Source: Candidatus Eremiobacteria bacterium (GTDB lineage Bacteria > Vulcanimicrobiota > Vulcanimicrobiia > Vulcanimicrobiales > Vulcanimicrobiaceae). From it: a stretch of DNA of 64,000 bases. Both the position numbers and the translations under genes were made by a program. The number at the start of each line of letters is the position of its first letter. Positions within the stretch are counted from its first letter, which is position 1. The stretch is from positions 2,144,001 through 2,208,000 of the forward strand of contig CAVTRC010000001.1 of NCBI GenBank assembly GCA_963737065.1, read 5' to 3'. Below, piece after piece: positions 2,236-59,033 of the stretch. The notes below the pieces were generated by a model. That model saw only the letters and a program-made list of their open reading frames with translations, did not search any database and had not been told where the DNA came from.

Positions 2236-3347
2236 TGCAGTGTTTGTACCTCGACCGACAACACCGCGGGCAAATCGTGCACGATCGCGTTCCACGTGTC
2301 TCCACCATTGGCCGAAACGTACACGGCGCCGCCCGTCGTGCCGAAATAGACGCCGCAGCCGTCTAGCTTATCGACCGCCATTGCATCGCGCAGAACGTTG
2401 ACGTAGCAGTTTTCTTGCGGTAATCCGTTCGTCAGCGGCTCCCATTCGTCGCCACCGCTGCGGCTGCGATACACCCTCAACTGTCCGTCCGGCGGGAAAT
2501 GATGCGAGTCGCTTGTGATCGGCACGACGTAGACCGTCTCCGGTTCATGTGCATGTACGTCGATCGGGAAACCGAAGTCGGTCGGCAGATTTCCGCTCAC
2601 TTCACGCCATGAATCACCGGCGTCGTCCGAACGCATCACGTCCCAATGCTTTTGCATGAAGAGCGTTTGCGGCCGTGACGGATGCATCGCAATCCGATGA
2701 ACGCAGTGGCCGACTTCCGCGTCTTCATCCGGGATATATTGCGAGCGCAAACCGCGATTGATCGGCTTCCAAGTTTCGCCGCAGTCATCGGAACGGAACG
2801 CTCCGGCCGCGGAGATGGCCGTATAGATGCGTTGCGGGTCAGACGGGTCTAGAATGACGGTGTGCAAGCACATGCCGCCCGCACCCGGCTGCCAGGACGA
2901 ACCCGTGCTGTGATTGCGCAACCCGGAAAGTTCTCGCCATGTCGCGCCGCCGTCCGTAGATTTGAACAACGCGGCATCTTCGATGCCGGCGTACACCGTG
3001 TCGGGATCGGCGAGCGACGGCTCGAGGTGCCACACGCGTTTGAATTCCCACGGACGGGGCGTGCCGTCGTACCACTGGTGCGTGCCCGGTACGCCGTCAT
3101 AAGCGAATTCGTTGCCGACGGTCTCCCAGGTTTTACCGGCGTCGTCGGAGCGTTGCATGACCTGTCCGAACCAGCTGCTGGTTTGCGAGGCATAAATCCG
3201 GTTCGGATCGACAGGCGACCCTTTGACATGGTAGATTTCCCAGCCGGGAAAGTGCGGCCCGTCGACGCGCCACGCGTCACGCTTCCCGTCGGAACTCAAA
3301 ATGAACGCGCCCTTCCGCGTTCCCACAAGAACTCGCACGCTGCTCAT
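2232..3347 (-). CDS. BNR/Asp-box beta-propeller protein (sialidase/glycosyl hydrolase-like)
   Basis: Repeated S-x-D-x-G-x-T-W Asp boxes; [11 protein letters not shown]-terminus. Confidence 0.85.
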
Positions 3348-3410
3348 GGCGTGCGACTAGCCCGCCGGCTTGCGCCCCTCCTTCATTAAGATGCCGGCGC
3401 GTGGCGGCCG

Positions 3411-3608
3411 ATGGTATCGAGTGTGAGCGTTCTCCCTCTCTCGGTCTCCGTCTCGTGGGCGATTTCGCAGTACCGCCAGGTGTTGTCCGTCATCGCGTCG
3501 CGTACGGAGTCCTTGCGCCAGATCGTCAAGACGCCCAAAGAGTCGCCCGAGCTGCGTCAATATCTGCGCTCGATCGGAATCGGACGGAATATCGACATCT
3601 ACGCGTAA
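3411..3608 (+). CDS. small hypothetical protein
   Basis: 65 aa, fills the gap before the cupin gene; ends GIGRNIDIYA. Confidence 0.5.
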   Translation: MVSSVSVLPLSVSVSWAISQYRQVLSVIASRTESLRQIVKTPKESPELRQYLRSIGIGRNIDIYA

Positions 3609-3618
3609 CGACGCGTAG

Positions 3619-4098
3619 ATGCGCAAAGTCAATGTCAACGAACTCGAAGAGCCGGGCTGGCATTCACCCAAAGGCACGTTTCAAGGATCGAGCAAGAACA
3701 TTTCGTTAGCCCTCGGCCGCGATCCCGACTCGTCCGACTATATCGAGCGCCAGCCCTTCGATCTCGAACTCCTTCGGATTCCGCCTGGGAAGAAACCTTA
3801 TCCGTATCACGCGCACAGCCATCAGTGGGAATTTTATCTCGTCGTCTCGGGAAGCGGGCTCGCGCGTGACGATGACGGTACGACGCGCATCGTCGCTGGT
3901 GACGCGTTCCTGTATAAGCCCGGCGAAGCGCACCAACTCATCAACGACGGTGACGAGGATTTGCTCCTCTACGTCATTGCGGATAACCCGTTTAACGACC
4001 ACGCGTACTATCCCGACAGTCAGAAGTGGTCGGTGAAGATTCCGGTGCGCCGGTTGCTGCGAGGCGACGATCTGGAGTACTTCGACCGAGAAGAGTAG
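3619..4098 (+). CDS. cupin domain protein
   Basis: PYHAHSHQWEFYLVVSG and GDAFLYKPGEAHQLIN cupin motifs. Confidence 0.9.
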   Translation: MRKVNVNELEEPGWHSPKGTFQGSSKNISLALGRDPDSSDYIERQPFDLELLRIPPGKKPYPYHAHSHQWEFYLVVSGSGLARDDDGTTRIVAGDAFLYKPGEAHQLINDGDEDLLLYVIADNPFNDHAYYPDSQKWSVKIPVRRLLRGDDLEYFDREE

Positions 4099-6699: not shown

Positions 6700-6930
6700 G
6701 TGAGCAACAAACTACCCGTAGTTCGTCCCGACCGTCTGCTGCGCGTGCTGTTGCGCCTTGGATTCGCGGAAACGCGCGTCAAAGGTTCGCACCATTTCTT
6801 GCGTCATCCAGACGGCCGCGTCACGACCGTTTCGACGCACGGCGGCTCAAAAGAAGTGCCGACCGGAACGCTCGCGGCGATTCTTTCCGATGTTCGCATA
6901 ACGGCCGACGAGCTGCGGAACTTGCTCTAA
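6700..6930 (+). CDS. hicA: HicA family mRNA interferase toxin
   Basis: LLRLGF...RVKGSHHFLRHPDGRVTTV..H..KEVPTGTLAAIL; AGGAG RBS. Confidence 0.9.
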   Translation: MSNKLPVVRPDRLLRVLLRLGFAETRVKGSHHFLRHPDGRVTTVSTHGGSKEVPTGTLAAILSDVRITADELRNLL

Positions 6931-18139: not shown

Positions 18140-18323
18140 GGAGCCTCTGACAAATTGACGTGTCGACTGCGACATGACGCCCTTCGGGTTATGGGGAAAC
18201 AACTGCATCTGCCGCTTCAGCGGCGCGGTCGCATCTCACAGAGAGGATGCTCGCGCGCGGCCTCATCGCATCTTCAATTGTGGCACCATAACAGTCGGCA
18301 CGTCGATTGTTCAGAGGCTCCTT
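18138..18323 (+). ncRNA. 186-nt highly structured intergenic RNA (6S-like size, or a dnaB leader)
   Basis: 13-bp perfect plus 17-bp (two G-U) closing stem pairs both ends; internal helices also present. Confidence 0.55.
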
Positions 18324-18327
18324 CACG

Positions 18328-19696
18328 ATGAGCGTTTCCCATCTTCACTCCGGCTCCATCGACCGTATTCCTCCGCATAACTTAGAAGCGGAGATGGCCT
18401 TGATCGGTTCAGTGCTCGTCGATCGCGAAATCATGAGCACGGTGGGCGAGATCGTTCGCCCGAGCGACTTCTACGCGCACGTGCACGAAACGATCTTCGC
18501 GGTGCTATTCGATCTGTTCGATCGAGGCGAGCCGCTCGACAAAATCAGCGTTGCCGAAGCGCTGCGCACTCGCGATGCGCTAGAGCGCGTGGGCGGGCTG
18601 TCCTATTTGAGTTCGCTCATGGATACCGTGCAGACGGCCGCGTCGGCGAAGTACTACGCGACGATCGTGCGCGAGAAGGCCGTGCTGCGTTCGCTGATCC
18701 ACGCCGGCACCCAGATCACCCAACTGGGTTACGAAGCCGAAGAAGACGTCGATGCGGCGCTCGACCAATCCGAGCAAATGATTTACTCGATCGGCGAGCG
18801 TCAACTCTCCGGGCGAGTTTGTCCCGGTCAATCGCTTGATGAAGGAGACGTTCGACTATATGGACCGGCTCTTCCACATGCGTGGAGAGCAGACGGGCCT
18901 GACGTCGGGCTTCCGCGACATCGACGCGATGACGACCGGGTTTCAGCCGGGAAATTTCATTATTGTCGCCGCGCGGCCGGGTATGGGGAAAACGTCGTTT
19001 GCACTCAACATGGCGGTTGCCGCGGCAGAGCGCAACGAACCAATTGCGTTCTTCTCGCTCGAAATGTCGAACAACGAACTCGTGCAGCGCCTCATCTGCG
19101 CGGAGGCGCGGCTCTCGATGCACGACATGCGCCGCGGTAACATTAAAGCGCATCAGTGGGAAGATATAGCTCGCGCAATGGGACGCCTCAACGAACTGCC
19201 GATCTATTTAGATGATGCCGGCGGTTTGAGCGTCACGGAAGTCCGCAGCCGCTGCCGCCGTTTGAAATCCACGAGCGGCCTCGGCGCCGTGTTCATCGAT
19301 TACTTGCAGTTGTTGCGCCCGGGCGTCCTTTCAAAAAATGTAAACCGCAACGAAGAACTTTCGGAAATTTGCCGCACGTTGAAGGTTACGGCGAAAGATC
19401 TCGGCGTGCCGATCATCGCTCTCGCACAATTGAACCGTGGCGTCGAATCGCGCAACGACAAACGCCCAATGCTCGCGGATCTGCGCGACTCCGGCTCGCT
19501 CGAACAAGAATCGGATATGGTATCGTTCCTTTTCCGCGAGGGCTATTACAACAAAGAAGCGTCCGAACCGGACGTGACGGAGTTCATCATCGCGAAGCAT
19601 CGCAACGGGCCGACCGGCACCGTTCGTCTGCGCTTCCAGGAGCAGTTCACCCTTTTCGTGCCGTACGCGGACGAATCGCATTTCCCCCCGGCCTAG
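18328..19696 (+). CDS. dnaB: replicative DNA helicase, with one frameshift (extra G at 18811-18813, probable sequencing error)
   Basis: PPHNLEAE N-terminus, AARPGMGKT, FIDYLQL, LRDSGSLEQ, IAKHRNGPTG. Removing one G restores ...QLSGEFVPVNRLMKE. Confidence 0.93.
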
Positions 19697-35752: not shown

Positions 35753-35967
35753 CGTAACGAAGTTCGCGCTTCTATTGAAGCTTCTTGCTGTGATACGTAA
35801 CTTCGGTCATTAAGCGGTCGCAACGAAGCGCTCCACAGCGCTCCTGCGCGCGCCGGCCGCGCAAATACGCCGCTGCGAGGATGCGCTAATGCTGCTACGA
35901 ATCCCATGGTGTTCACCGTGCGGCTTGCTCTGCCGCGCGGTGGTGCTCCATGCGGAGGACATCGGAA

Positions 35968-37310
35968 ATGGCTCGATGGCCGAAGCTCAAGAATCGTTCA
36001 AACTCGGTGAGGGCATCGAGCGCCAACGGAAACGGCGGCGATCTTGGTTTTGAAGCAACGCTCTGGTCGGCGGCCGATACGTTGCGCGGCGCAATGGACG
36101 CCTCGGAATACAAGCACCCGGTGCTCGGGCTAATTTTCCTCAAATATATTTCCGACGCGCTCGAGGAGCTACATGCGCGGCTCGCTGCGGATCCCGAGTC
36201 CGATCCTGAGGATCGCGACGAATACACCGCTCGAAATGTCTACTGGGTACCGGTCGAGGCGCGTTGGTCAGGCATAGCAGCGAAGGCGAAGTCGCCGCAG
36301 ATCGGCGAGATTGTCAACAATGCGATGACTGCAATCGAGCATGATAACGCGCGTCTCCGCGGCGTCCTTTCGAAAGAGTATGCGAAGCCGTCTCTCGGCT
36401 CAACGCGCCTTGGGCAGATCATCGACCTTATCAACGGCATCGGCTTGGGTGACGCAGAGGCGCGTAAGCATGACGTCATCGGGCGGGTCTATGAGTATTT
36501 TCTCGGGCGCTTTGCGAATGCCGAAGGAAAAGCGGGCGGCGAATTCTACACGCCGCGATCGGTTGTGCGGCTTATGATCGAAATGATTGAGCCGTTCAAA
36601 GGGCGCGTCTTCGACCCATGTTGCGGTTCTGGCGGCATGTTCGTGCAGTCCGAACAGTTCGTTCTCGCGCACGGTGGAAAGATCGGCGACGTCTCGATTT
36701 ACGGCGAAGAATCGAACCACACGACGTGGCGCCTGGCCATGATGAATCTCGCGATCCGCGGCATCGACGCAGAGATCTCGTGGAAGGAGGCCGGTTCGTT
36801 TCTTCAGGACGCGTATCCCGATGTAAAGGCCGATTTTATCCTTGCAAATGCGCCGTTTAACGACAGCGAATGGGGCGCCCAAGGCCTTCGCGACGACAAG
36901 CGTTGACGTTACGGCATTCCGCCTGCGGGAAACTCGAACTACGCCTGGATTCAGCATTTCGTGTATCATCTCGCGCCGAGCGGTGTTGCAGCGTTCGTTA
37001 TGGCGAACGGCTCCATGTCATCGAACCAAAGCGGCGAGGGGCGAAATTCGCAAGAACCTGATCGAAGCGGAGCACAGCGGGCTCGTCGACTGCATGATCG
37101 CACTGCCCGGGCAGCTTTTTTACACAACGCAAATTCCAGTGTGTGTATGGATTCTTGCGCGCGATCGCCGAAAACCACAAATTCCGCGATCGCAGCGGCG
37201 AGATTCTTTTCATTGATGCCCGCAAGATGGGTCAGATGACGGACCGCACGCATAGAACCTTGCGTGACGAAGACGTTGCAAAGATCGCCGGCGCGTATCA
37301 CGCGTGGCGC
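35968..37310 (+). pseudogene. hsdM: type I R-M methyltransferase HsdM pseudogene
   Basis: [31 protein letters not shown] is changed to NAPF. TGA at 36904 where Trp is expected, shifts near 37040 and 37172, truncated after AYHAWR. No hsdS or hsdR. Confidence 0.88.
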
Positions 37311-42357: not shown

Positions 42358-43932
42358 TTGGCGTCACGCCGGCTGCAAACGTCGATCTCGCGCCGTATTC
42401 GCATCCACACTGCCCTCAACGCCGAACTGGTGTACCGTCCGCGCTTTGGTCGATCGTTCAATCTGTATGCTCGCGGGCGGTTCGTCAACGAGGAAATGCA
42501 GATTGGATTTGTCGATGAGTCTGTGCCAAGAATCAGCCCTTCTGATGTTCTTGTCGGAATTAGCGGCGGGCGCTTCACCCTATGGCACTCGAGAGACGGC
42601 CGCCAGATTCGCTTGCGCGAATCGCACTTACTCTACGCCCTCCGATGGGCGCCGAACCTTATCCAATTCCTGACACTGCTGACGAACGATAGAATAATTT
42701 CGCCGAACCATATGCGATGGGGTCCCCTCAACGCTTTGCCCTTCTTGCCGCGGTTGACAAAAGGTCGCCTCGTCCTATCTCCAGCATTTTGGCTACTTGA
42801 CCTTGCAGCGTTCCGTTCGTCCGCGGACAGATTCGCATGGCTTCAGGAATTCGCTCAGCGCTGGAAGATGCCGCAGTATTGCCTCTTCACTCAAGGCGAC
42901 AAGACGCTTCCCATAAAAATTGATTCTCCGTTCGCCGTGGAAACAATTGATCGTGCATCGGTGGGAAACGAGGTGGCGGTAATTCAAGAGTGGTTTCCAA
43001 ATCCCGAAAGCGGATGGCTTAAGGGTGGTGACAGCCATTACAATGCAGAGCTTGTTGCAAGTTTTGTACGCGCGCGTAACATTGAACCATCGCCACGACG
43101 CCCCGCTATTCGTTTCAATCGCGTAGATCGTCAGAAGTTACCCTCGTCTGATTGGACAGCTGTTCGGATCTTTTGCGGCCAGTCGCAGACCGACAGAGTG
43201 CTCGAAGTACTGCACAATCACATCTCGGAGGTGCGAAAAGGGCCGCACTTTCGCAAATGGTTCTTCGTACGATACAACGCTCCAAGGTACCATCTGCGTG
43301 TACGCATACAAGCTCGCGATTGTGATGCCCGCGGCATCATCATGGCCGGAATCATGCAGGTATGCGACGAGGTAATCGCATCCGGTTTGGCAGACGAATA
43401 TGAGTTCTTCACCTACAATCGTGAACTCGAGAGGTACGGGGGGACGGCCTCGATTCCGGTTGTTGAATCGATATTCCACAAGAACAGCGAACTAGTAATT
43501 GCTGCGATGGCTTCTTGCAAATCGGACGGCGAACGGTTGAAGTGGTCCGCTTATCACGCTGCTCTCGTCATCCAGGGCCTTTTGACTCCTACTGAACTTG
43601 GCGAATGGGTGCGTAACCAACGGCGGCACTATAGGCTCGACACGTCGGAACGACAATTTGTAAGAGCGCTAGCACCGCTTAAGCAGGACAGGGCAACGCG
43701 AAGGTTCACTCGGGAAGCAAATCTGCTCGCACGTCTGGAACGCGAGGGCCATCTCTTAGTGTCGCGCGCGGAAATCATTTCATCCGTGCTTCACATCCAC
43801 TTCAACCGCTTCGGGATTATTGATGAAGAGGGTCGCGCGAGAGCCATCGCTTTCGCCCTCCTTGCTTCTTCCACGGAACGACGTCCAGCTTCGGAGGAAG
43901 TCACTGACCGTGAAGCTGTGACTGTATCGTAA
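42358..43932 (+). pseudogene. 5'-truncated class I lanthipeptide dehydratase (LanB): end of the glutamylation domain plus the elimination domain
   Basis: FLPRL..GRLVLSPA.W, GDK.LP; WFFVRY..P.YHLRVR, YNRELERYGG, LHIHFNR. About half the usual length, with a weak TTG start. Confidence 0.8.
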
Positions 43933-47082: not shown

Positions 47083-47511
47083 ATGGCTCTGATATACCCA
47101 GAGACCCGGTATGCGCCGCCGGACCTGGCCGACATCGCCGACGATGCCAATCGCGAGCGCCTAAGCCCAGCTGCCCTCGCGGCATTCTTCAATATAGTTG
47201 ACGCTTGGAAAATTGCCGCCGAGGACGCGATGCGTCTTCTCGGCGGAATGTCGAGCAGCACGTATTATAATCTGAAGAAGACGCCTAGGACTCTTGACGT
47301 TGATACGCTTCTTCGAACGTCGTACCTCGTCGGAATATACAAGGCGTTACACTTACTCCATTCGGATGCACTTGCAGATCGTTGGGTGCAGCTTCAGAAC
47401 CGAAACCCTATTTTCAAAGGGTCTACGCCGCTCGAATATATGATCCACGGCGGCATCCCAGCATTTCAGATAGTACGCCGACTTCTTGACGCGCGTCGCG
47501 GTGGCGTCTAA
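47083..47511 (+). CDS. Xre/MbcA/ParS family antitoxin
   Basis: HTH LLGGMSSSTYY; WV...N.NPIF.G.TPLEYM..GG; LLDARRGG. Confidence 0.9.
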   Translation: MALIYPETRYAPPDLADIADDANRERLSPAALAAFFNIVDAWKIAAEDAMRLLGGMSSSTYYNLKKTPRTLDVDTLLRTSYLVGIYKALHLLHSDALADRWVQLQNRNPIFKGSTPLEYMIHGGIPAFQIVRRLLDARRGGV

Positions 47512-48184
47512 ACTTCCACCGACGACGCTCGTTAGGGCAAACGATACGCATCCGCTCATACCGACGCGGTTCGAAAACAGTGTGCTCGCAAAAATTGCCA
47601 ATTCAGACGAACATCTCGCCGCTATATTTGAACTCGATAATGCTACGAACGACCGGCTTTTAGCTGAAAATGGCTTCCTTCCAGGAATAGGGATCCACGA
47701 GCTCCTCTTCGGAGTGCCATATTACCGCATCGTTAACGCGGCGTTCACTCATGCCCATCCGCTTGGAAGCCGTTTCAATGGCCCGGATCGTGGAGCATGG
47801 TATGCCTCGTTCGCGATCGAGACGGCGCATGCAGAAGTTGCATATCACAAGACGCTGGAATTGGCTGAGATCGGCGTGTATGACGACGAGGTAACGTATC
47901 GCGATTATTTGGCCGATTTTAGCGCCGATTTGCACGATTTGCGTCTAGGCGATCCTGCGTTCACACCGTGCTTGCACCCTGACAAATATACCGATAGCCA
48001 AGACCTCGCGCGCGATTTGCTGTCGGTCGGCGCAATTGGCGTTGTCTATCCGAGCGTTCGGCATAAGGGCGGTACATGCATCGCGTGCTTTCGCCCCGCC
48101 GTCGTATCAAACGTTCGGGAATCAAAGGTTTACCGCTTCTCTTGGACTGGAACGACGACGCCCGCAATTGAAGAAGTTACCTAA
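47501..48184 (+). CDS. RES family NAD+ phosphorylase toxin
   Basis: GSRFN...GAWYA...TA.AEVAYH, Y..SQ, YPSVRH..G.CIA.FRP. Confidence 0.9.
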   Translation: MASKLPPTTLVRANDTHPLIPTRFENSVLAKIANSDEHLAAIFELDNATNDRLLAENGFLPGIGIHELLFGVPYYRIVNAAFTHAHPLGSRFNGPDRGAWYASFAIETAHAEVAYHKTLELAEIGVYDDEVTYRDYLADFSADLHDLRLGDPAFTPCLHPDKYTDSQDLARDLLSVGAIGVVYPSVRHKGGTCIACFRPAVVSNVRESKVYRFSWTGTTTPAIEEVT

Positions 48185-48512: not shown

Positions 48513-48750
48513 TTATCAACGGTAAGGTTGGCCTTCTGAACCTCGCCAAGCAATTGGGTAACGTTAGCGAGGCATGCAAGGTCATGCGGTACAGCCGCGA
48601 TACGTTCTATCGTATTCGTTGATATGTACGAGATTGGAGACGAAATGGCGCTGCTCGAGATCACCCAACGAACGCCGAACCGAAAGAACCGTTTGGCACC
48701 GGATGGTTGAGGGAATTGTTACGCTTGCGATCGAAGCAGCCGTCGTACGA
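48499..48750 (+). mobile_element. IS481-family transposase remnant (N-terminal HTH)
   Basis: QKKIINGKVGLLNLAKQLGNVSEACKVMRYSRDTFYR...PNRKNRL; frameshifted and truncated. Confidence 0.75.
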
Positions 48751-48754
48751 GGCA

Positions 48755-49571
48755 GGTCCCGCAAACACGCAAGCCGAAGAGGAAAATCCGATCCACCGAC
48801 GCTCGAGCGAATGCCGAAGAGTTCTGCGCGAATCCGATCGCTTGCGGCGTTGCGAACGTCTGGATGAACAGGAAGCAGTCCGGTTACGTTATGATCGCCG
48901 CGATCGACTTGTGCGACAGCGGACGGAGGCTGTAAATCGGCTGCGGGATGCCGCATTGCGGCTGGCGATTGGACCGCTGCCCTCGAACATGACGACCGAA
49001 ATTGCATTGCAGAATGCAGCAGATCTTCTAAGCGGTCATCGCGGTAAGAGGTATACCGGCGATGCGCTTGCTGATGAGATCGACGAGGCGATCTCGGAAA
49101 TCCGCCGGCTCAATGCTGCAGTGAATGCAGCTGGAACGCCAACTGCGCCCTTTCGTTAAGCGCCTTGCGCCCGAATTGCTGGAGCTTCGAGGCGTTTCTA
49201 TTGTCGTTGCTGCCGGGATCGTTGGGCATGCCGGCAATATTCGCATGTATCGCAATGCCGCGAGCTTCGCGATGCGCGCCGGGGCGGCGCCCGTTCCGTG
49301 TTCGAGCGGTCGCAACGCGAGCGTCCGTGTCAACACCGGTGGTGATCGTCAGCTCAATCGATTACTCCATGTTATTGCGTTGGTCCAAAACCGCACGCGC
49401 AATCATCCGGGCCAACTCTATTATGCGCGTAAGCGAGCTGAGGGCAAGACGCATCGAGCTGCGATGCGTTCTCACAAACGGCAGCTGGCAACGGTTGTGT
49501 TTTATCGGTTGCAACCGATGCAAGACCGACTTGCGCGCAATAGTCAGAATAGTATTGAAGTCGCCGCCTAA
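48755..49571 (+). mobile_element. IS110-family transposase remnant
   Basis: RGKSDP, RRDRLVRQRTEAVNRL, GAAPVPCSSG, GGDRQLNRLLH, RKRAEGKTHRAAMR; N-terminus lost, frameshifted. Confidence 0.8.
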
Positions 49572-49605: not shown

Positions 49606-49619
49606 CGAACGTAAGTTCG
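49606..49619. promoter_or_regulatory. LexA box at the istA start
   Basis: CGAAC-GTAA-GTTCG, ending 2 nt before ATG 49622. Confidence 0.6.
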
Positions 49620-49621
49620 TG

Positions 49622-51734
<2,113 letters not shown>

Positions 51735-51736
51735 CG

Positions 51737-52729
51737 CTACACCTTCCCTTCGCAGCTTCCGAGATGTTCGCTCTGCAGCGAAGTAGCGTATTCCGCCGCA
51801 GTGAGCTTGAGGTTGGCGACTAACCGCTTTTCCCCGGACTGTGGCGACCAGGGATGGCGCCGCTGTGGTCCTTTATACCTTCGATTTCTGATCCGGTGGG
51901 GTCGAAGCGGTGGAAAGTTCGATCCTATGATTCCGTGAATATGACGCTTGATTTGAAACACCGAACGCAGCGGACGTACGGAATTGAGCGCGTCGTGAAG
52001 CTCGAGCGATACCTCTGGCGCGCGAAATCTGCGCTGGTAGCGTAAAACCAGCAGAGCGTGTGCGGTTTGGCAAATGTCGTGCCGACTCCGCAATACCTTG
52101 CGCAAGAAGACATAAAGCTTCTGAGCACCCGGATAGGCAGGATTCAGCGCATATAAGGTATGGCGCCCAAAGACGCGGCCTTCCAATATTTCCTGACGTT
52201 GGAGATCTCTGAGCCGCCGGGATAGATCCGACCTGTCTGCGCCGAGCACCAGATCCATCTCCCGTGCGAACACCTGACTCACAGCGGCAACCATGAGAAG
52301 CACCGAGGTCCGCCCGTCAGTGCAAAAGAGGTTGCGCGGGATGTCTGCCGGCTGCGAAACGGACGCGCGCTTCGTATTGAGCCGCGCGTATCCGTCTGTG
52401 CTCGTTTCGATGCCGTAATGCTGTGCGAGGATCCGCAGGAACGTGCAGAGCTCGGCGAAGTGCGCCAGCCCTTTGTTGAGGGAGTAGCGGTACTTTCCGC
52501 GGATCAAGTGCTCTTTCCGGAGCTCCCGTATGTTGGTGACCAACTTACCTCGTTGCAAGCCAAAGTAGTCCGTGATGTCGCTACTCCGGCAGCCGGGTCT
52601 GGCTGCAATAAACATAAGAACTGCAGTCCTCGGTCCCCACCCGAAGATGCTGGGGTAACTGGCTGCCCGTCCGTCGACGTATGGAGCAACGCGATCCCGT
52701 GGCTGTATCTGTGGCATGGCTTTCCTCAC
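51737..52729 (-). CDS. tandem winged-helix DNA-binding protein
   Basis: Two internal repeats: F....RT.VL....L.....Y.LN......L..FLR.L. Confidence 0.6.
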   Translation of the reverse strand: MRKAMPQIQPRDRVAPYVDGRAASYPSIFGWGPRTAVLMFIAARPGCRSSDITDYFGLQRGKLVTNIRELRKEHLIRGKYRYSLNKGLAHFAELCTFLRILAQHYGIETSTDGYARLNTKRASVSQPADIPRNLFCTDGRTSVLLMVAAVSQVFAREMDLVLGADRSDLSRRLRDLQRQEILEGRVFGRHTLYALNPAYPGAQKLYVFLRKVLRSRHDICQTAHALLVLRYQRRFRAPEVSLELHDALNSVRPLRSVFQIKRHIHGIIGSNFPPLRPHRIRNRRYKGPQRRHPWSPQSGEKRLVANLKLTAAEYATSLQSEHLGSCEGKV

Positions 52730-53091: not shown

Positions 53092-53745
53092 TTAGAACAA
53101 CGCCACTACGGCGATGACGGCGGTGATTACAGTGCCGGCCACCTTTAGCGCGTTGATTAAGTCGTCGATCGCGGCCTGTACGTCCCAGTTGCAATACACG
53201 GTCCAGCGCCAGGTATAGGATGCGCATAAATCGGCCCACGCATTCTTGATGTCGTCGTTCGTGCCGATATCTGAGAAGCTAAAGTCGCGCGAGCCGCTGT
53301 CGATCGTGCCGTACGTTTCTCCCGCGTGGCTGAATGTGAACGCCTTGCCGCTCTGTGAAACGATAGCCCAGTTCGGCTCGATTTTGTAGCTCGGGAAGCC
53401 CGAATCGTGAAATGATCCGGAGAAGGCGTAGCCGCCGTCTTGATAGAGCGTCAGGGACATCGAGCCGCCTACGGGTACGCCACCGTCGAACGCGATATAG
53501 CCGGTGTTGAACGGCCCAAGTTGTGACGGTAGAGACGGTGCGCGCTTAGGCATCACGATGATGTTTTGCAAGAGCGCCGCCAGTCGCGGATCGACGATAC
53601 GTTCTTCCCTCTGTCCGGGAGAAACAGGCTGGGTAATGCGCACGGCGCTCTCGCCGCTGACCCTCGCCTGCATCGTACTCTGTGAGAGCGCATGGGTTGC
53701 CAACGCGTCGCTGACGTTAGCGCGATCGACGGTCCGATTATTCAT
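53092..53745 (-). CDS. hypothetical protein with C-terminal hydrophobic anchor
   Basis: GAGGAG RBS; Gly/aromatic beta-rich core; ends AGTVITAVIAVVALF. Confidence 0.75.
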   Translation of the reverse strand: MNNRTVDRANVSDALATHALSQSTMQARVSGESAVRITQPVSPGQREERIVDPRLAALLQNIIVMPKRAPSLPSQLGPFNTGYIAFDGGVPVGGSMSLTLYQDGGYAFSGSFHDSGFPSYKIEPNWAIVSQSGKAFTFSHAGETYGTIDSGSRDFSFSDIGTNDDIKNAWADLCASYTWRWTVYCNWDVQAAIDDLINALKVAGTVITAVIAVVALF

Positions 53746-53908
53746 AACCAGTACTCCTCAGAAAACTGCATGCTCCGATCGTAGTACCGGGCCGTGCGCC
53801 CAGCGTGCGCGCCAATTCCGGCCGAGCAGCCGCCGCAAAATAGCATGCAACCGAGCAGTCGCCGGCGAATAGCCGGCCTTAATACCGTTTGCCTTTTGGA
53901 GTGACGTG

Positions 53909-55771
53909 ATGCTACAGGATGTAGAACGCGCTGCGTTAAGCGCCGCAATGGATGCCCTTTTCCACCGTATGCCGCTCGTCTGGAACACCTTTCCGGGCGG
54001 CAAAAACGCTCCGCAATGGCATGGGCCCTTAGGATCATCCGCGCACCGCGTGCCGGCCGTCGCCGTTCGCAATGCGAAGGGCGACGCATCCCTACTTCGC
54101 GATCGAGCGATTCACGCTGGACTGGCTCGCCAACGATTGGGCCGCCGTCGAGTTTCATTCATGGACGCCGACGCCTGAAGATCCGCTCAAGCTTCGCTTC
54201 GCGCGCATCCTTCTCGAAGCCGGCCCAGGTGAACTCCGCCCGGATGCGATGCGACAATCCGTGCTCATCATGCGAGAATTTCTCGCGACGCTGCGTCTGT
54301 GCGCGATTCCCGTCCTCGACGGCGTCGGTGGGGTCGCACTCTTTGTGCCGTTCGACGACGCGCCCGAGTACGCACCCGTTCGCACGTGGCTGCACGCGCT
54401 CGCAAACGACGCGGCTGCGAAGTATCCGCAATACTTTACGACCGAGCCGAACAGCGCAGGCGGAGCGCGCGTGCACGTGCACGTTAAGTCAAATGCACCG
54501 GGCTTGTTCAGCGCGTTGCCGTACAGCTTGCGTGGTCCGATCGCCGCTACGCCGTCGCTGCGGTCACATGGGATGAACTCGCGTCATTGCAGCCCGGCGA
54601 ATTATGCATCGAGGCCGATCGTGTGCAAGAACGGCTGCAAACGATCGGCGACGTTTTCCAATCGCAACTCGACGTGATTGGCTCTCAATGTTTTGCAACG
54701 GTCGCTTTCAAGCAGCCGCCGGTGCTCGTTCCCGCGACGCAGCCGAGAGGCCATGTCATCCGCGCGGCAATGAAGATCTTGAGCGACGGACACTCGCGCG
54801 ACGCGCAAGCGATTCTCGATGCTGCGCTCGCCCGCGGACTGCTCACAAAGAACACGAGCGAAAAATACGTCTACATCGCATTGACGGAGTTTATTGCACG
54901 GAGTATCGGCCACAACCGCAAGCCGCCGATCGTCCAGAATCCCGATCGCTCGTTCCGGATGAACGAACCGCTCGATGATTGGCCCGACGTCATGCTCCCC
55001 GCGATCCAAGGCGACGATGAGGCCGCGCCCGCATTGATCGCGCGTTTGCGAAACACCGTTAGCGGAGACGATCCTGCCGCGTGGGAAGCGGCCGTTTGCG
55101 ATGCATTCGCACATGTTGGCTTTCGCGCGCAGCACATCGGCGGCCATAAAGCGCCCGACGGGATCATCGATGCGCAACTCGGACCGATTGGTTATCGCGC
55201 AATGGTTGAATGTAAGACGGGCGCCGGCGTTGTGACGCAGCCCGACGCGGTCGAAGCGTCGAAGTGGGCGGGACAATACAACGCGCAATACTGTACGCTG
55301 ATCGGGCCCGGTTTCTCCGAAGAAGTCGAACTCCATGACGAACTGCTTACGCACAAAGTGAGTGCATGGACGATCGACGATCTCGTTACCGTCTTGCAAG
55401 AACGGCTGAACCCGCAGGAGTTGCGTACGTGCTTCGCGCTCGGATTTGCCGAGGACGCCATAACCGACGTGCTGTGGGAACGCCGGCACGGCCGACGCAA
55501 GCGCGTTACCTATGTGGCCAACGTACTGCTACAAGACGGCTGGAATATGCAGGTCGCTGCGGCAACGCAAGCCGACCCCGCAAACGCCGCGCATTTAACG
55601 ATCGATGCGGCGATGATGCTCGTGCAGCAACGGCTCACTGCCGCAAACGCGACGCGCGCGTGCACGCGCGACGAAATCGAAGCGGCAGTCGTGTATCTAT
55701 CGAATGTGCTTACCGCTCGAGCGATGCGCCTCGACGATGGCAGCGTAGTCATCCTAACGCCACCGACCTAA
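53909..55771 (+). CDS. degenerate LigD-polymerase (AEP) + HARE-type HTH + PD-(D/E)xK nuclease fusion, with two compensating frameshifts (near 54080 and 54540)
   Basis: EFHSW, PYSLR, VTWDEL (LigD Pol-like); AAMKILSDG......ILDAALARGLL (HTH); WEAAVCDAF..GF...APDGII...MVECKT (nuclease). Confidence 0.65.
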
Positions 55772-55855: not shown

Positions 55856-57226
55856 TTACTTATCTCGAAGCTCAATCAATTCTCCACCATCGCTAGACGC
55901 CGACTCTCGGCAAAACGCAGCATGGTCGCGTTCCACTTGTTCGGCGTAAGTCAGCGTGAACGCGAGAATTGCAAGATCAAATGTTCGCCTCTTGCCCATG
56001 TATCCAGCGATTGCGGCTGCATCGCCTGAGCGAGCGTGACTCGTTGCGAGCGCCCAGCCGCACCAGTGAGCGTATTCCCGAAGCTGATATTGATCAGCCT
56101 CGTCGAGATCCGCTGAGGCCTTCATGTCTTTGAATTGACGGACATAAAAATCGCGGTCACCCGATTTTGCCCAGCCTAAAAACACGTCGCTTGCCGCTTG
56201 CATAAGGCGCTGACCGCGCACGACGCGTTCACCCTGGTTTGCATATTGTTCGCTCGAAAGGTATGGCTCGAGCACCGACTTCCTCGCTTCCTTGACCTGA
56301 AGGATGAGCATGTCGTCCTCGGCCGCCGCGAAAAGACCGACGCCGCAGCGCGTGCCTACGCTTCCCACTCCGACGACCTTAATTGCGTGATCGACGAGAT
56401 GATACCGGTTGAACAGCGCCCGAACGTCCGGCGCTAGCGTTGCGGCGTAGTCTGAAAAAATTTCCGGTAGGTCGAAACCTGTACGATCGGTCGCCGTCGA
56501 GTGAAACAGAACGGGGGCTCTTCCTTAAAACGGCGTTCACCGTTTGCAATTTCCGTGAATCGGTCAACGGCAGCACGGATCGAGTCCGTCGCTGCCTCGT
56601 CCGCTATACGGTTGCGACGAGCCCGCACCGCGGCGTCGCGTGCTTCGTTTAGGATGCCTCTCGCGTCCAGACGCATATAAAAAACTGTCGAGTGCGGGAG
56701 TCGCTGCTAAGTCATTCATTCGCGTCCGGTACGATTCCACGGCAGCAAGCGCCGCAATCGCGTTCGAACGTTCCTTAAAGCCATTCTGACGGCCGGCAAG
56801 GAGAACGCTCGTAACAAGTCGTTTTACATCCCACTCCCACGGCCCGCGAAGCGTCTCATCAAAATCATTCAGATCGAAAATTAGATTGCGTTCAGGGGTT
56901 GCGAATCCGCCAAAATTCAGGCAGTGAGCATCGCCACACGCCTGGACCATCAGACCGGATACGGGGCAGTCTGCAAGGTCGTCAGCCATGATGACCGCAG
57001 AACCTCGAAAAAATGTAAACGGCGTTTCCTGGATTCGGTCGTCTCGGAGTGGTAGCAATTCCTGAAGCCGACCTTCGCTGACGCGTTTGAGCAGGCCGAG
57101 GGGATCGCGAGACGGCGATGGCGACCAATTGCCTTGAGCAGCACGCGGAACGTTGGAGCGGAGCTTTTTGCCGGCGGCTAGCCGCATCATGCGGCTGAAC
57201 TCCGCGGCTTCATTTTCGGGCGACAT
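55856..57226 (-). pseudogene. DUF2252 family protein, multiply frameshifted
   Basis: PFTFFRGSA, CGDAHCLNFG, FDLNDFDE...PWEWDVKRL, KVVGVGSVGTR, LQVKEA..SVL, MQAASDVFLGW. Confidence 0.85.
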
Positions 57227-57371: not shown

Positions 57372-57635
57372 ATGCTCGATGCCCATCCAAGCGCAGGGAG
57401 CTTCTCCGACTTTCTCGCAGCCGCTCCGGATTGCATTAAGATCCTCGACCTCGAAGGTCGCCTGAAGGCAGTGAGTGCGAACGGAAGGCGCCTACTTGGA
57501 ATCGATGACTTTGCCCCCTTCGCTAATGCAGATTGGCTTGGGTTCTGGCAAGCTCGAGATCGTACTGCCGCTGCTCAGGCGATGCAAGAGGCACGTTCCG
57601 GGCGAGAAGGACGATTTATTGACTTTTTCCGCACC
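57372..57635 (+). pseudogene. truncated PAS-domain sensor gene
   Basis: APDCIKILDLEGRL...NG..LLGIDDF......W..FW....AAAQA..EAR.G..GRF, then breaks. Confidence 0.7.
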
Positions 57636-58056
57636 CTGCGTCGAATTGCCAGCGTGGGAATCGCAACGCGAGACCGTCAGGAACAGCGAGTAGTTGTCCC
57701 TGCCTCACCATCTGATTGACTACGGGCCGCGATCGCCGAACGAACGTTCCCGCTTCGTCAGAACTGAGCGCATCTGCAAATGTTAGAGCGCTAAGCGTGT
57801 CGACACGATCTTGATTGCGTGCTCGCAGCGCAGCGGCGTCATCCTTTGTTGAAAATATGTAGCTTCTTACTGTTTCGAGTACTGTGCGAAGTCGCCGTTC
57901 ATCGACGTCAGTGAGAAGGCTCTGGTAAATGGAAAACGACGCGTCATGACCTGACGCTCCAAGGGCCACCGTCCTCTTAGCACGGCGCGATACGAAAGTG
58001 GCAGTTTTCCTTCTCTGCGTAGCGGTTCTTTTGACAGTAGAAGATTTCCGAGGCAT
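57616..58056 (-). pseudogene. truncated HTH DNA-binding or antitoxin-like protein
   Basis: LSSDEAG.FV..SR..VNQ..RQGQLLAV......RFPRWQF, ending abruptly at the PAS remnant. Confidence 0.6.
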
Positions 58057-58075
58057 CGCTAGGGTAATACCAAGC

Positions 58076-58111
58076 CTCGTAAAGTTCGTAAAGCTTGTAA
58101 AGCCCGTAAAA
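58076..58111. repeat. four tandem 9-bp direct repeats (YYYGTAAAR)
   Basis: CTCGTAAAG TTCGTAAAG CTTGTAAAG CCCGTAAAA. Confidence 0.8.
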
Positions 58112-58361
58112 TGGTCCCTGCCTTGGTGACGACCGGCGGTCCCGGCGTTTCCTGTCGGACGTCGTTGCCGCAACGCCAGCCGATCGCGCAAACGCCGCGC
58201 ATGTAACGCTCGAGCGATTCGGCTCGACGACCGCAGCTTAGTCATGCTGTCGCCATTGCAAAGAAGCAATGCCCCCGGTAGTTGGATGGCACAAGCGATC
58301 CGAAAGGTCCGGTCTAACCTAATATCTCGACACCTACGATGCGGGCGTCTCACGCCGACCA

Positions 58362-59033
58362 CTAAAGCCTATAGGTTCTCACCTCTCGGTACTCATCGAT
58401 CGCCGCGCCATCCCAAAAAAGTTCAATCTCCCGAACGGTGTCGGCAACGTCTTTGACTGCCAGTGGCTTAAATGTCGCATAGCAGGTTCCACCGGGTGAT
58501 CGAACGCTGTCGTACCACACGCCTTGGTGGCCATTGGCGCGCAGCCGCGCTCCCGCCGCCTGCGCTGACGCATAAGCGTCAGGGTCGTAGATCGCGGGCT
58601 CTTTAAGATCATCAGCACCGCCGCGCCGGATGTCCAAATGAGCCGACTCATCCAACGAGAGTTCAAGTCCGTATCTAGGCACGAGTGTCGGCTCGGTCAT
58701 GTACGTCGCTCTAAGCTTTTTGGCGGCATGGTAACTAGACTCTCGGACCGCAACGAGAAATGCGTCCGCAGTGTAAAGCACGCCGTACGTTCCTGGAGAG
58801 AAGCGGCTTCCGCCGATCGTAAGAAATGGACCCATAACGATCGAAGCCTGAGGGCCAACGTAGCGGTCTTCAGGCGCCACAAGCGAGATGTTTAGCAATG
58901 CATCCGCGGCCATTGGATCCGTTAGCGCGCGTAGCGCTAGCAGCTCTTCTAAGTCCTCTGGCCGCTCAACGAGATCTACTAGAGCCGCTAGCGGGTGCCG
59001 CGGGTCCGGGACAACTCGATGGACCCCTACCAC
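58362..59033 (-). CDS. RES family NAD+ phosphorylase toxin
   Basis: HRVV, GSRFS.G.YGVLY.A, AVRESSYH, IYDPDAY, YDSVR.PGG.C. Confidence 0.9.
   Translation of the reverse strand: MVGVHRVVPDPRHPLAALVDLVERPEDLEELLALRALTDPMAADALLNISLVAPEDRYVGPQASIVMGPFLTIGGSRFSPGTYGVLYTADAFLVAVRESSYHAAKKLRATYMTEPTLVPRYGLELSLDESAHLDIRRGGADDLKEPAIYDPDAYASAQAAGARLRANGHQGVWYDSVRSPGGTCYATFKPLAVKDVADTVREIELFWDGAAIDEYREVRTYRL

Follow-up and report, generated by a model that had tools for sequence, protein, structure and literature searches.

We analysed a gene of Candidatus Eremiobacteria bacterium (assembly GCA_963737065.1) that occupies positions 53909-55771 on the forward strand of a 64,000-nucleotide stretch of contig CAVTRC010000001.1 (positions 2,144,001 to 2,208,000), hereafter called the window. 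Sequence comparison and structure prediction showed that this locus is a member of an uncharacterised protein family, in which a predicted fold belonging to the superfamily of archaeo-eukaryotic primases (AEP), resembling the polymerase domain (PolDom) of LigD but without the residues that there serve catalysis, nucleotide binding and 5'-phosphate binding, is joined to an apparently active nuclease. We consider it close to an even chance that the protein is a self-contained, methyltransferase-independent, restriction-like nuclease acting against foreign DNA, with the dead polymerase exapted as its DNA-recognition module. Full-text literature searches revealed no description of a dead PolDom combined with a PD-(D/E)xK nuclease, in agreement with a preliminary description of the locus, which had put the protein forward as a candidate new one. 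The sections consulted of two papers deal with other AEP families and not with this architecture (PMC5862659), and with canonical LigD (PMC8656161).

The coding region was found as three overlapping open reading frame (ORF) pieces in frames 2, 0 and 2. The intact homologue P0002, which has 630 residues, was used as the reference for comparisons with the window, and P0001 denotes the ORF of the C-terminal half (C-half) in the window. A tblastn search with P0002 revealed three collinear segments in frames +1, +2 and +1, corresponding to residues 24-64 in the first frame (51% identity), residues 39-220 in the second (60%) and residues 206-628 in the first again (69%). The ORF calls and these segments confirmed the three-piece ORF joined by a +1 and a -1 shift that the preliminary description had proposed, and the motifs it had listed (ILLEA, DGVGGVA, VHVKSN, EFHSW, PYSLRG, TWDEL and E...PD...ECK) are all present in the translations. 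At the first junction, at about 54079-54090, the sequence ...VRNAKG resumes as (A)THPYFAIE one base later; at the second, at 54537-54541, ...PYSLRGP resumes as DRRYAVAAVTWDEL one base earlier. As read from the sequence, an in-frame TAG at 53870-53872 excludes a longer N-terminus. An AlphaFold2 model of P0002, made from an 87-sequence alignment, reached a predicted local distance difference test score (pLDDT) of 92.5 and a predicted template-modelling score (pTM) of 0.86. It is predicted to consist of four parts, namely the fold of a LigD PolDom, a first winged helix, a PD-(D/E)xK nuclease similar to FokI and HindIII, and a second winged helix. The features of the window gene are as follows.

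53897..53900, + strand: possible ribosome-binding site GGAG, 8 nt 5' of the ATG at 53909, read from the sequence
53906-54178, + strand: ORF piece 1, frame 2
53909..54082, + strand: coding part of piece 1, frame 2; initial part of the PolDom-like domain (N-terminal helix, first strands), without the N-terminal strand that bears the 5'-phosphate pocket in canonical LigD Pol
54072-54677, + strand: ORF piece 2, frame 0
54079..54090, + strand: frame break 1, from frame 2 to frame 0; one surplus base in or beside a GGG run, possible assembly error
54087..54539, + strand: coding part of piece 2, frame 0; LigD PolDom-like AEP core with its motifs replaced and PYSLRG kept, from alignments with PF21686, P0002 and PDB entries 2iru and 5dmu
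54207-54221, + strand: ILLEA, equivalent of motif I, from the translation
54318-54338, + strand: DGVGGVA, equivalent of motif II, from the translation
54477-54494, + strand: VHVKSN, equivalent of motif III, from the translation
54537..54541, + strand: frame break 2, from frame 0 to frame 2; one base short, between ccg and at, possible assembly error
54539..54739, + strand: last part of the PolDom-like domain, with TWDEL and GDVF, then a linker of low confidence (pLDDT <50)
54587-55771, + strand: ORF piece 3, frame 2
54740..54967, + strand: winged helix 1 (P0001 residues 40-115), from structure comparison of the model
55010..55477, + strand: PD-(D/E)xK nuclease domain (P0001 residues 130-285), from structure comparison and conserved residues
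55085-55087, + strand: E of the nuclease
55154-55159, + strand: PD of the nuclease
55208-55216, + strand: ECK of the nuclease
55484..55771, + strand: C-terminal winged helix 2 (P0001 residues 288-382) and stop codon, from structure comparison (pLDDT >90)

A Pfam search using window piece 2 revealed a match with LigD_Prim-Pol (PF21686; E 3.5e-13, 50.2 bits, cut-off 27.4), and the same family matched all six homologues scanned (E 2e-21 to 5e-27, 77-96 bits). The NCBIfam equivalog for ligD_pol, TIGR02778, scored 45.3 bits, below its cut-off of 214.7. When a profile of the family was compared with PDB sequences, it matched the NHEJ (non-homologous end joining) polymerases 5dmu (E 3e-29) and 2iru (E 7e-27). 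A Foldseek search revealed similarity of the N-terminal half (N-half) of the model with the M. tuberculosis LigD PolDom (4mky_A; E 8e-14, template-modelling score (TM) 0.78), followed by Pseudomonas LigD Pol, the Methanocella NHEJ polymerase and Prim-PolC. The LigD polymerase fold that had been suggested for the N-half was thus borne out by the Pfam, Foldseek and PDB profile matches.

The residues expected at the active site of such a polymerase have been replaced throughout the family. Conservation was counted in columns over 87 full-length proteins, mapped through an alignment to 2iru. At the position of the first of the two motif I aspartates, which we take to be numbered Asp137 and Asp139, Leu was found in 64 proteins, Phe in 16, Ile in 3, Ser in 2 and Val in 2, and Asp in 0/87. 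The second position is held by Glu in 68/87, and Asp is absent from its six commonest residues, which together cover 84/87. Motif II follows the pattern D-G-x-x-G-I-A in place of SGxxGxH, with Ser replaced by Asp in 77/87, Gly retained in 87/87 and His replaced by Ala in 78/87. The motif III Asp, given as Asp227 for the M. tuberculosis enzyme in the sections of PMC8656161 consulted, has become His in 79/87 (H199), and a second His is found two residues earlier in 81/87 (H197). The loss of the AEP aspartates beside a conserved nuclease site, first noticed in the window sequence, was therefore found to be family-wide. Some ancestral residues are nevertheless retained: the Tyr of PYSLR, the Asn of motif III and the Arg that precedes motif I each occur in 87/87, and an aromatic residue stands at the equivalent of the template-stacking Phe64 in 84/87.

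The same comparison bears on what the domain might bind. In the sections of PMC8656161 consulted, the canonical 5'-phosphate pocket of M. tuberculosis LigD Pol is formed by Asn13, Lys16 and Lys26. The N-terminal strand carrying Asn13 and Lys16 is missing in the family, which has a median of 17 residues before its conserved Tyr. Among the full-length relatives there is no conserved N..K motif, and Lys is not among the seven commonest residues at the column equivalent to Lys26. The preliminary description had proposed a sensor of 5'-phosphate DNA ends or of nucleotides; because the pocket has no counterpart and other residues stand where motif II would hold the incoming nucleotide, neither proposal found support at the level of residues, and the recognised DNA feature is probably not a canonical 5'-phosphate end.

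Canonical enzymes occur in the same genome. It holds this single copy of the family and, elsewhere, three canonical LigD-Pol paralogues, all of which keep FDLDP, SGxxGxH and the N-terminal L-T/S-N-x-x-K...K; the motif III Asp is kept in both paralogues that extend through motif III. For most of 244 pairs within the family the synonymous rate dS was about 1, near saturation, and values are therefore given here for no more than the three closest pairs. Their omega (dN/dS, the ratio of nonsynonymous to synonymous rates) was 0.25-0.32 in the N-half and, lower still, 0.15-0.16 in the C-half; these are rough values, as dS is near saturation. Judged from these substitution rates, both halves appear to be under purifying selection.

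The model of the window C-half ORF reached a pLDDT of 93.1. Its nuclease core superposed on HindIII (3a4k_A) with Z 14.2 and a root-mean-square deviation (rmsd) of 2.5 Å over 145 aligned residues, and on the small subunit of R.BspD6I with Z 12.0. Winged helix 1 and the nuclease together (model residues 40-277) aligned as a unit to FokI residues 304-578 with Z 15.7, and a Foldseek search with the C-half also revealed FokI (E 3e-8). AspBHI and MspJI were among the structural matches (Z 7.8-8.6). Taken singly, winged helix 1 resembled Zalpha- and ScpB-type winged helices (Z 7.2-8.2), and winged helix 2 resembled those of cullin WHB, ORC and MarR-type proteins (Z 7.2-8.9). The preliminary description had called the first of these a HARE-like helix-turn-helix (HTH). 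A winged helix N-terminal to the nuclease was indeed found by structure, but its identity as HARE-HTH did not hold: Pfam HARE-HTH (PF05066) gave no match at E<=1 on the window pieces or six homologues, and when the complete genome was searched in six frames the outcome was likewise negative at E<=10, with control genomes giving matches.

The catalytic residues of the nuclease are almost invariant, with E401, D425 and E442 in 87/87 and K444 in 86/87 (P0002 numbering), and from this near-invariant site the nuclease is apparently active. Of the active Mrr-like nuclease described earlier, the intact and conserved E...PD...ECK thus stood, and the likeness to Mrr was weaker. Mrr_cat was the sole Pfam nuclease family matched; window piece 3 scored 16.1 bits (E 0.013) against a cut-off of 21, and one of the six homologues scanned exceeded it (P0056, 26 bits vs 21). 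Precomputed annotations assigned PF04471 to a minority of relatives and PF09254, presumably the FokI C-terminal family, to one.

A protein search revealed 124 relatives, and most of the 120 listed have about 600-680 residues and carry PF21686. Intact one-ORF homologues, which the preliminary description had suggested looking for, therefore exist, nearly all of them in Vulcanimicrobiota. They are named in the databases as "hypothetical protein", "DNA primase" or "LigD". In the ESM Atlas we found one cluster of 123 members, annotated as "hypothetical protein", with Vulcanimicrobiota as the commonest taxon. A profile search with the C-half against 1.84 billion representatives gave 998 matches at E<=1e-3 and 143 at E<=1e-30; many of the best 150 of the 998 are proteins of about 600-700 residues with the match C-terminal, or shorter pieces.

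When one genome per GTDB species was searched, 130 stretches were found to encode a relative. The best 80 of these 130 loci bear 65 labels of the Vulcanimicrobiota/Eremiobacterota type, 10 unlabelled "bacterium" entries and five others (two of Acidiferrales and single ones of Limnocylindrales, Rhodospirillales and Dormiibacterota). Of the 201 genomes of the phylum, 63 gave at least one match at E<=1e-30, and some gave several; these tallies, and those for Ku below, include the unpublished genomes G127 and G177, on which no other result depends. By family, matches occur in 54/113 genomes of the window organism's own family, in 3/3 and 5/15 of two sister families and in 0/69 of the other 18 families. 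Neither of the two genomes of its own genus has a match (0/2). It is thus an accessory family that hardly occurs outside Vulcanimicrobiota (Eremiobacterota).

The two halves also occur as separate genes. Among 20 loci fetched around partial matches, eight (L136-L142 and L148) have adjoining N-half and C-half genes on opposite strands, head to head, with the first aligned residues 71-138 nt apart in seven of the eight and overlapping alignments in L142. These head-to-head loci have an apparent shared divergent promoter region. The halves are in tandem in 4-5 of the 20 loci, 3 kb apart in one, and five loci have only an N-half; stand-alone C-halves also exist. All 20 N-halves lack DxD (20/20). 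Complex prediction for the split pair of L136 gave a score of 0.00 and hence no verdict, being evidence neither way. The fusion and the adjacency of the two halves speak for a functional link between them.

At the five N-half-only loci, no nuclease half of the family was found within the fetched flanks. Four loci of genus g24 (L150-L153) hold N-half genes at about 2800-3800 of each locus that form a clade of stand-alone dead PolDom genes. Members of this clade have lost motif I but retain Asp where motif III lies ("RVRLD"); Arg and Asp stand at the two His positions, and the genomic context is conserved (GNAT acetyltransferase, the cysteine dioxygenase CDO_I and DUF3465). An alternative effector paired with the dead PolDom was sought in the adjacent ORFs of L150-L153, which yielded only GNAT, CDO_I, DUF3465 and HTH matches, and the idea was rejected.

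Catalytically dead enzymes acting as sensors are a recurring theme in immunity, and to our knowledge no AEP or LigD polymerase has been described as an immune sensor. We propose that the protein may be a restriction-like DNA endonuclease that works without a methyltransferase and would be type IV/Mrr-like in its logic. The dead polymerase domain and the two winged helices would recognise a feature of DNA and position or license the nuclease, and the biological role would be conflict with foreign DNA rather than NHEJ. A more specific version, in which a phylum-restricted immune nuclease of one protein or two genes uses a catalysis-stripped NHEJ polymerase to sense a foreign DNA structure and so license FokI/Mrr-like cleavage, possibly through a rebuilt His/His/Glu/Asp pocket, is tentative and on balance doubtful.

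Comparison with known systems shows where this protein would stand. With LigD PolDom and Prim-PolC (2iru, 4mky, 2fao, 5dmu and 5op0) it shares the fold (Foldseek TM 0.70-0.78), clear sequence similarity (E 3e-29) and motif order; PYSLR, TWDEL, the Asn of motif III and the Arg that precedes motif I are likewise retained. Unlike them, it has Leu, Glu and His for the catalytic Asp triad and replacements of the motif II Ser, Lys and His; it also lacks the N-terminal strand of the 5'-phosphate pocket, has no Ku or ligase among the neighbours scanned, and has a nuclease fused to it or paired with it. The C-half is nearest to the type IIS enzyme FokI, whose D3 winged helix and cleavage domain align with it as the unit described above. 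However, the family lacks the D1 and D2 recognition domains and a regular cognate methyltransferase, has an extra C-terminal winged helix and the N-terminal dead polymerase, and differs in domain orientation, as reflected in an rmsd of 13 Å. HindIII and the small subunit of R.BspD6I gave the best compact superpositions of the nuclease core, but at no more than 12-16% sequence identity; their flanking domains are unlike those of the family, which also has no restriction-modification operon.

Mrr-type (type IV) enzymes consist of an N-terminal winged helix and a PD-(D/E)xK domain. The family resembles them in this layout, in the want of a methyltransferase and in having Mrr_cat as its only nuclease family match, whereas most of its members, including the window copy, fall below the Mrr_cat cut-off, and we know of no dead PolDom partner in Mrr. 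A further analogy is offered by MspJI/AspBHI and by Shedu, a defence nuclease that combines a sensor with a PD-(D/E)xK domain; here too a variable N-terminal sensor would control a C-terminal PD-(D/E)xK nuclease within one polypeptide. The sensor fold of the family is, however, that of an AEP polymerase and not an SRA or DUF4263-associated domain, and PADLOC models gave no meaningful match. The family differs from type II restriction-modification in having no cognate methyltransferase next to the nuclease: a DNA methyltransferase was found within three ORFs in 2 of 21 loci, namely a Dam-type enzyme in L040, belonging to its own PDDEXK_11 partner, and a Dcm-type enzyme in L054, and none lies near the window gene. 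This lack of a methyltransferase partner and the Mrr/MspJI-like nuclease matches would point to a putative type IV-like dependence on modification.

Were the more specific version correct, the protein would be the first AEP-superfamily "pseudo-polymerase" to serve as the specificity module of a restriction-like enzyme. The proposed nuclease would also show the recycling of bacterial NHEJ parts in a poorly known soil phylum. Should the dead PolDom direct the FokI-like cleavage domain to a particular DNA structure, restriction-like nucleases would gain a new principle of recognition, and the protein might serve as a programmable scaffold in the way that FokI cleavage domains have. In our view the main interest of the locus lies in the exapted, hitherto undescribed domain that would act as the sensor of a nuclease of the restriction type.

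The genomic neighbourhood was studied in 20 homologous loci and the window, with all-against-all clustering of 431 ORFs and Pfam searches of 117 flanking ORFs. Clustering of the 431 ORFs from 21 loci revealed no conserved partner gene. Within three ORFs of the family gene, defence or mobile genes were found in several loci: Cas9-Cas1 (L055), LmuB with E 1e-96 (L052), PDC-M36A (L053), Dcm (L054), Dam with PDDEXK_11 (L040), ParE with ISL3 (L049) and HicB (L050). The neighbours of the window gene include RES-Xre and the insertion sequences (IS) IS21/IS110. Three of the loci, L052, L053 and L054, are syntenic and hold different defence genes (Lamassu LmuB; PDC-M36A; a Dcm methylase with a Response_reg_2 protein), and this position looks like a small defence hotspot.

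A defence role is plausible, and to that extent the defence protein with a gated nuclease of the preliminary description still stands, but several observations weigh against our proposal. The defence-island enrichment looked for was not seen: PADLOC-positive neighbourhoods (E<=1e-20) numbered 6/20 for the family and 6/20 for a control built from 20 random loci in a genome of the same genus, with six ORFs taken round each centre, and enrichment by raw PADLOC counts was rejected on this matched result. PADLOC-DB 2.0 models gave one weak match (REase_II, E 0.003, 14 bits) among four homologues and none for the other three. Many neighbours are ordinary secreted or metabolic genes, and the gene sits in syntenic positions across related genomes (L043/L048, L044/L045 and L052-L054). 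No relative was found in IMG/VR viral contigs (none confirmed of 89 pattern matches), and in PLSDB the plasmids match only canonical LigD Pol domains, with 0/70 records covering at least 80% of the query. There is also no evident means of sparing self DNA, the stand-alone clade with GNAT, CDO_I and DUF3465 suggests that the dead PolDom may have a role of its own, and the conserved His197, His199, Glu110 and Asp145 in the former active site may reflect a new chemistry and not simply a dead site. For every member of the family, the function is inferred.

In the control, the PADLOC matches were a Ser/Thr kinase as PD-T4-6, a RecQ-like helicase as DpdF, PolA as RTasPolA and an ABC ATPase as mad3, with apparent housekeeping matches at L156, L163, L168, L174 and L175. 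In our judgement these are housekeeping look-alikes, unlike the matches at the family loci. Raw counts from single hidden Markov models of PADLOC are hence unfit as evidence for defence islands.

The proposal of a nuclease directed against foreign DNA was weighed against three other explanations of the family. The protein could be a DNA-repair accessory, in which the dead LigD polymerase domain still binds Ku or broken ends and brings the nuclease for end processing in NHEJ. This would suit the derivation of the N-half from NHEJ polymerases, the ancestral DNA-facing residues that are kept, including the aromatic one at the Phe64 equivalent, and the restriction of the protein to three families of the phylum (f1-f3) in which Ku is near-universal (107/113, 3/3 and 15/15). 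However, four genomes of 95-98% completeness (G029, G033, G077 and G111) have the family protein and no Ku match, which weakens a dependence on Ku. No Ku or ligase was found among the 117 flanking ORFs of the 20 homologous loci, nor were Ku or DNA ligase families found among the 77 window ORFs scanned, so that the earlier remark on their absence from the window holds. The loss of the 5'-phosphate pocket and the patchy distribution, with about half of the own family, none of the own genus and sometimes several matches per genome, also argue against a repair factor. An SOS or other common operator was rejected, as a LexA-box-like pattern occurs in 1 of 39 upstream regions and these share no common 8-mer. 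We regard a role in repair as rather unlikely.

Alternatively, the N-half may have been rebuilt and not be dead at all, its His/His/Glu/Asp cluster binding a metal for a new reaction or a small ligand, which would give a protein with two active centres or a ligand-gated nuclease. The conservation of H197, H199, E110 and D145 (the last in 77/87) at the old catalytic positions, the 2iru alignment, in which the motif III Asp is matched by H199 and the second motif I Asp by E110, and the apparent purifying selection on the N-half all speak for it. E110, however, varies to T, S, Q, A or H in 16/87, the stand-alone clade has Arg and Asp at the two His positions, and the searches made found no comparable metal site; we consider a rebuilt site improbable. 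A selfish or mobile-element nuclease, similar to a homing endonuclease or an addiction module and neither a host defence nor a repair factor, would account for the patchy distribution, the several matches in some genomes, the in-frame stops in some copies, and the IS and toxin-antitoxin neighbours at L049, L050 and the window. It fits poorly with the lack of conserved flanking genes or common neighbours, with the syntenic positions and with the results from IMG/VR and PLSDB, and we judge it very improbable.

A separate question is whether the window copy itself is intact. The only DnaB helicase gene of the genome (one match above cut-off), at 18292-19696 on the + strand of the window, is frameshifted near 18800-18815, its N-terminal part being open in one frame and its DnaB_C part in another. 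We then compared the window's assembly (G000) with the same-genus genome G158, using 20 evenly spaced 20-kb samples of the latter (L156-L175). In these, 206 ORFs of at least 250 residues were called, and 161 of them have an orthologue in G000 at >=60% identity and >=80% coverage. Among the 161 conserved genes, 17 are split across frames in G000 and three carry two shifts; on inspection of the 17, one was a double match rather than a shift and two were ambiguous. Five of the 17 lie within one 20-kb sample (G000 C1, about 1.548-1.566 Mb), and overall a frame break occurs about once in every 11 kb of conserved coding sequence. Single-copy dnaB is taken as essential. Because it is not credible that a tenth of the conserved genes, including single-copy dnaB, are true pseudogenes, the assembly must contain indel errors.

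We hold it somewhat more probable than not that the frame breaks of the window gene are likewise assembly artefacts and that the organism may well carry an intact gene. There is a lesser, though appreciable, probability that both breaks are real, the copy studied here then being a pseudogene that lost its activity recently within a variable island undergoing decay. Several further genes in the stretch at 36-59 kb of the window are broken or truncated, and this stretch is third lowest of 108 genome windows in mean ORF length; two shifts in 1.9 kb exceed the genome-wide rate; the near-invariant Tyr13 is lost and the N-terminus is about three residues shorter than in relatives; and in-frame stops also occur in relatives of other genomes (8 matches). 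On the other hand, the assembly clearly has frame-breaking errors, dnaB of the same window among them, and these errors cluster. The window copy retains all seven family-invariant residues of the N-half and all 19 of the C-half, its GC content at third codon positions (GC3) is gene-like (0.68-0.73), and both breaks are single-base changes within short G runs. The shifts reported in the preliminary description are thus present but may be artefacts rather than features of the gene. Programmed frameshifting was ruled out, since the homologues are single ORFs and dnaB is broken in the same assembly. Split genes in this assembly should not be taken as biology without the reads.

The gene is situated in a variable island at 35950-59033 of the window that contains damaged genes, part of the damage possibly being assembly error. 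Just upstream of the gene are two ORFs, at 51737-52729 and 53092-53745, neither of which recurs beside homologues. The genes of the surroundings are as follows.

6700-6927, + strand: HicA toxin ORF
35950-37213: HsdM, split or truncated
42358-43929: lantibiotic dehydratase without most of its N-terminal domain
47083-48181, + strand: RES toxin gene and Xre-like antitoxin (antitoxin at 47083-47508, Pfam-confirmed)
48707-49568: IS110 transposase fragments
49619-51416: IS21 IstA/IstB, the IstB match being confined to profile positions 3-197 of 238
51737-52729, - strand: ORF of 330 residues with two weak MarR/Crp-like HTH matches
53092-53745, - strand: ORF of 217 residues with no family match and a hydrophobic C-terminal tail
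55856-57226, - strand: DUF2252 in two or more pieces
57616-59033, - strand: second RES toxin gene; the adjoining ORF at 57616-58359 has no Pfam match and is Xre-like by inspection only

The RES and HicA toxin ORFs in this list agree with the toxin-antitoxin modules that had been reported near the gene.

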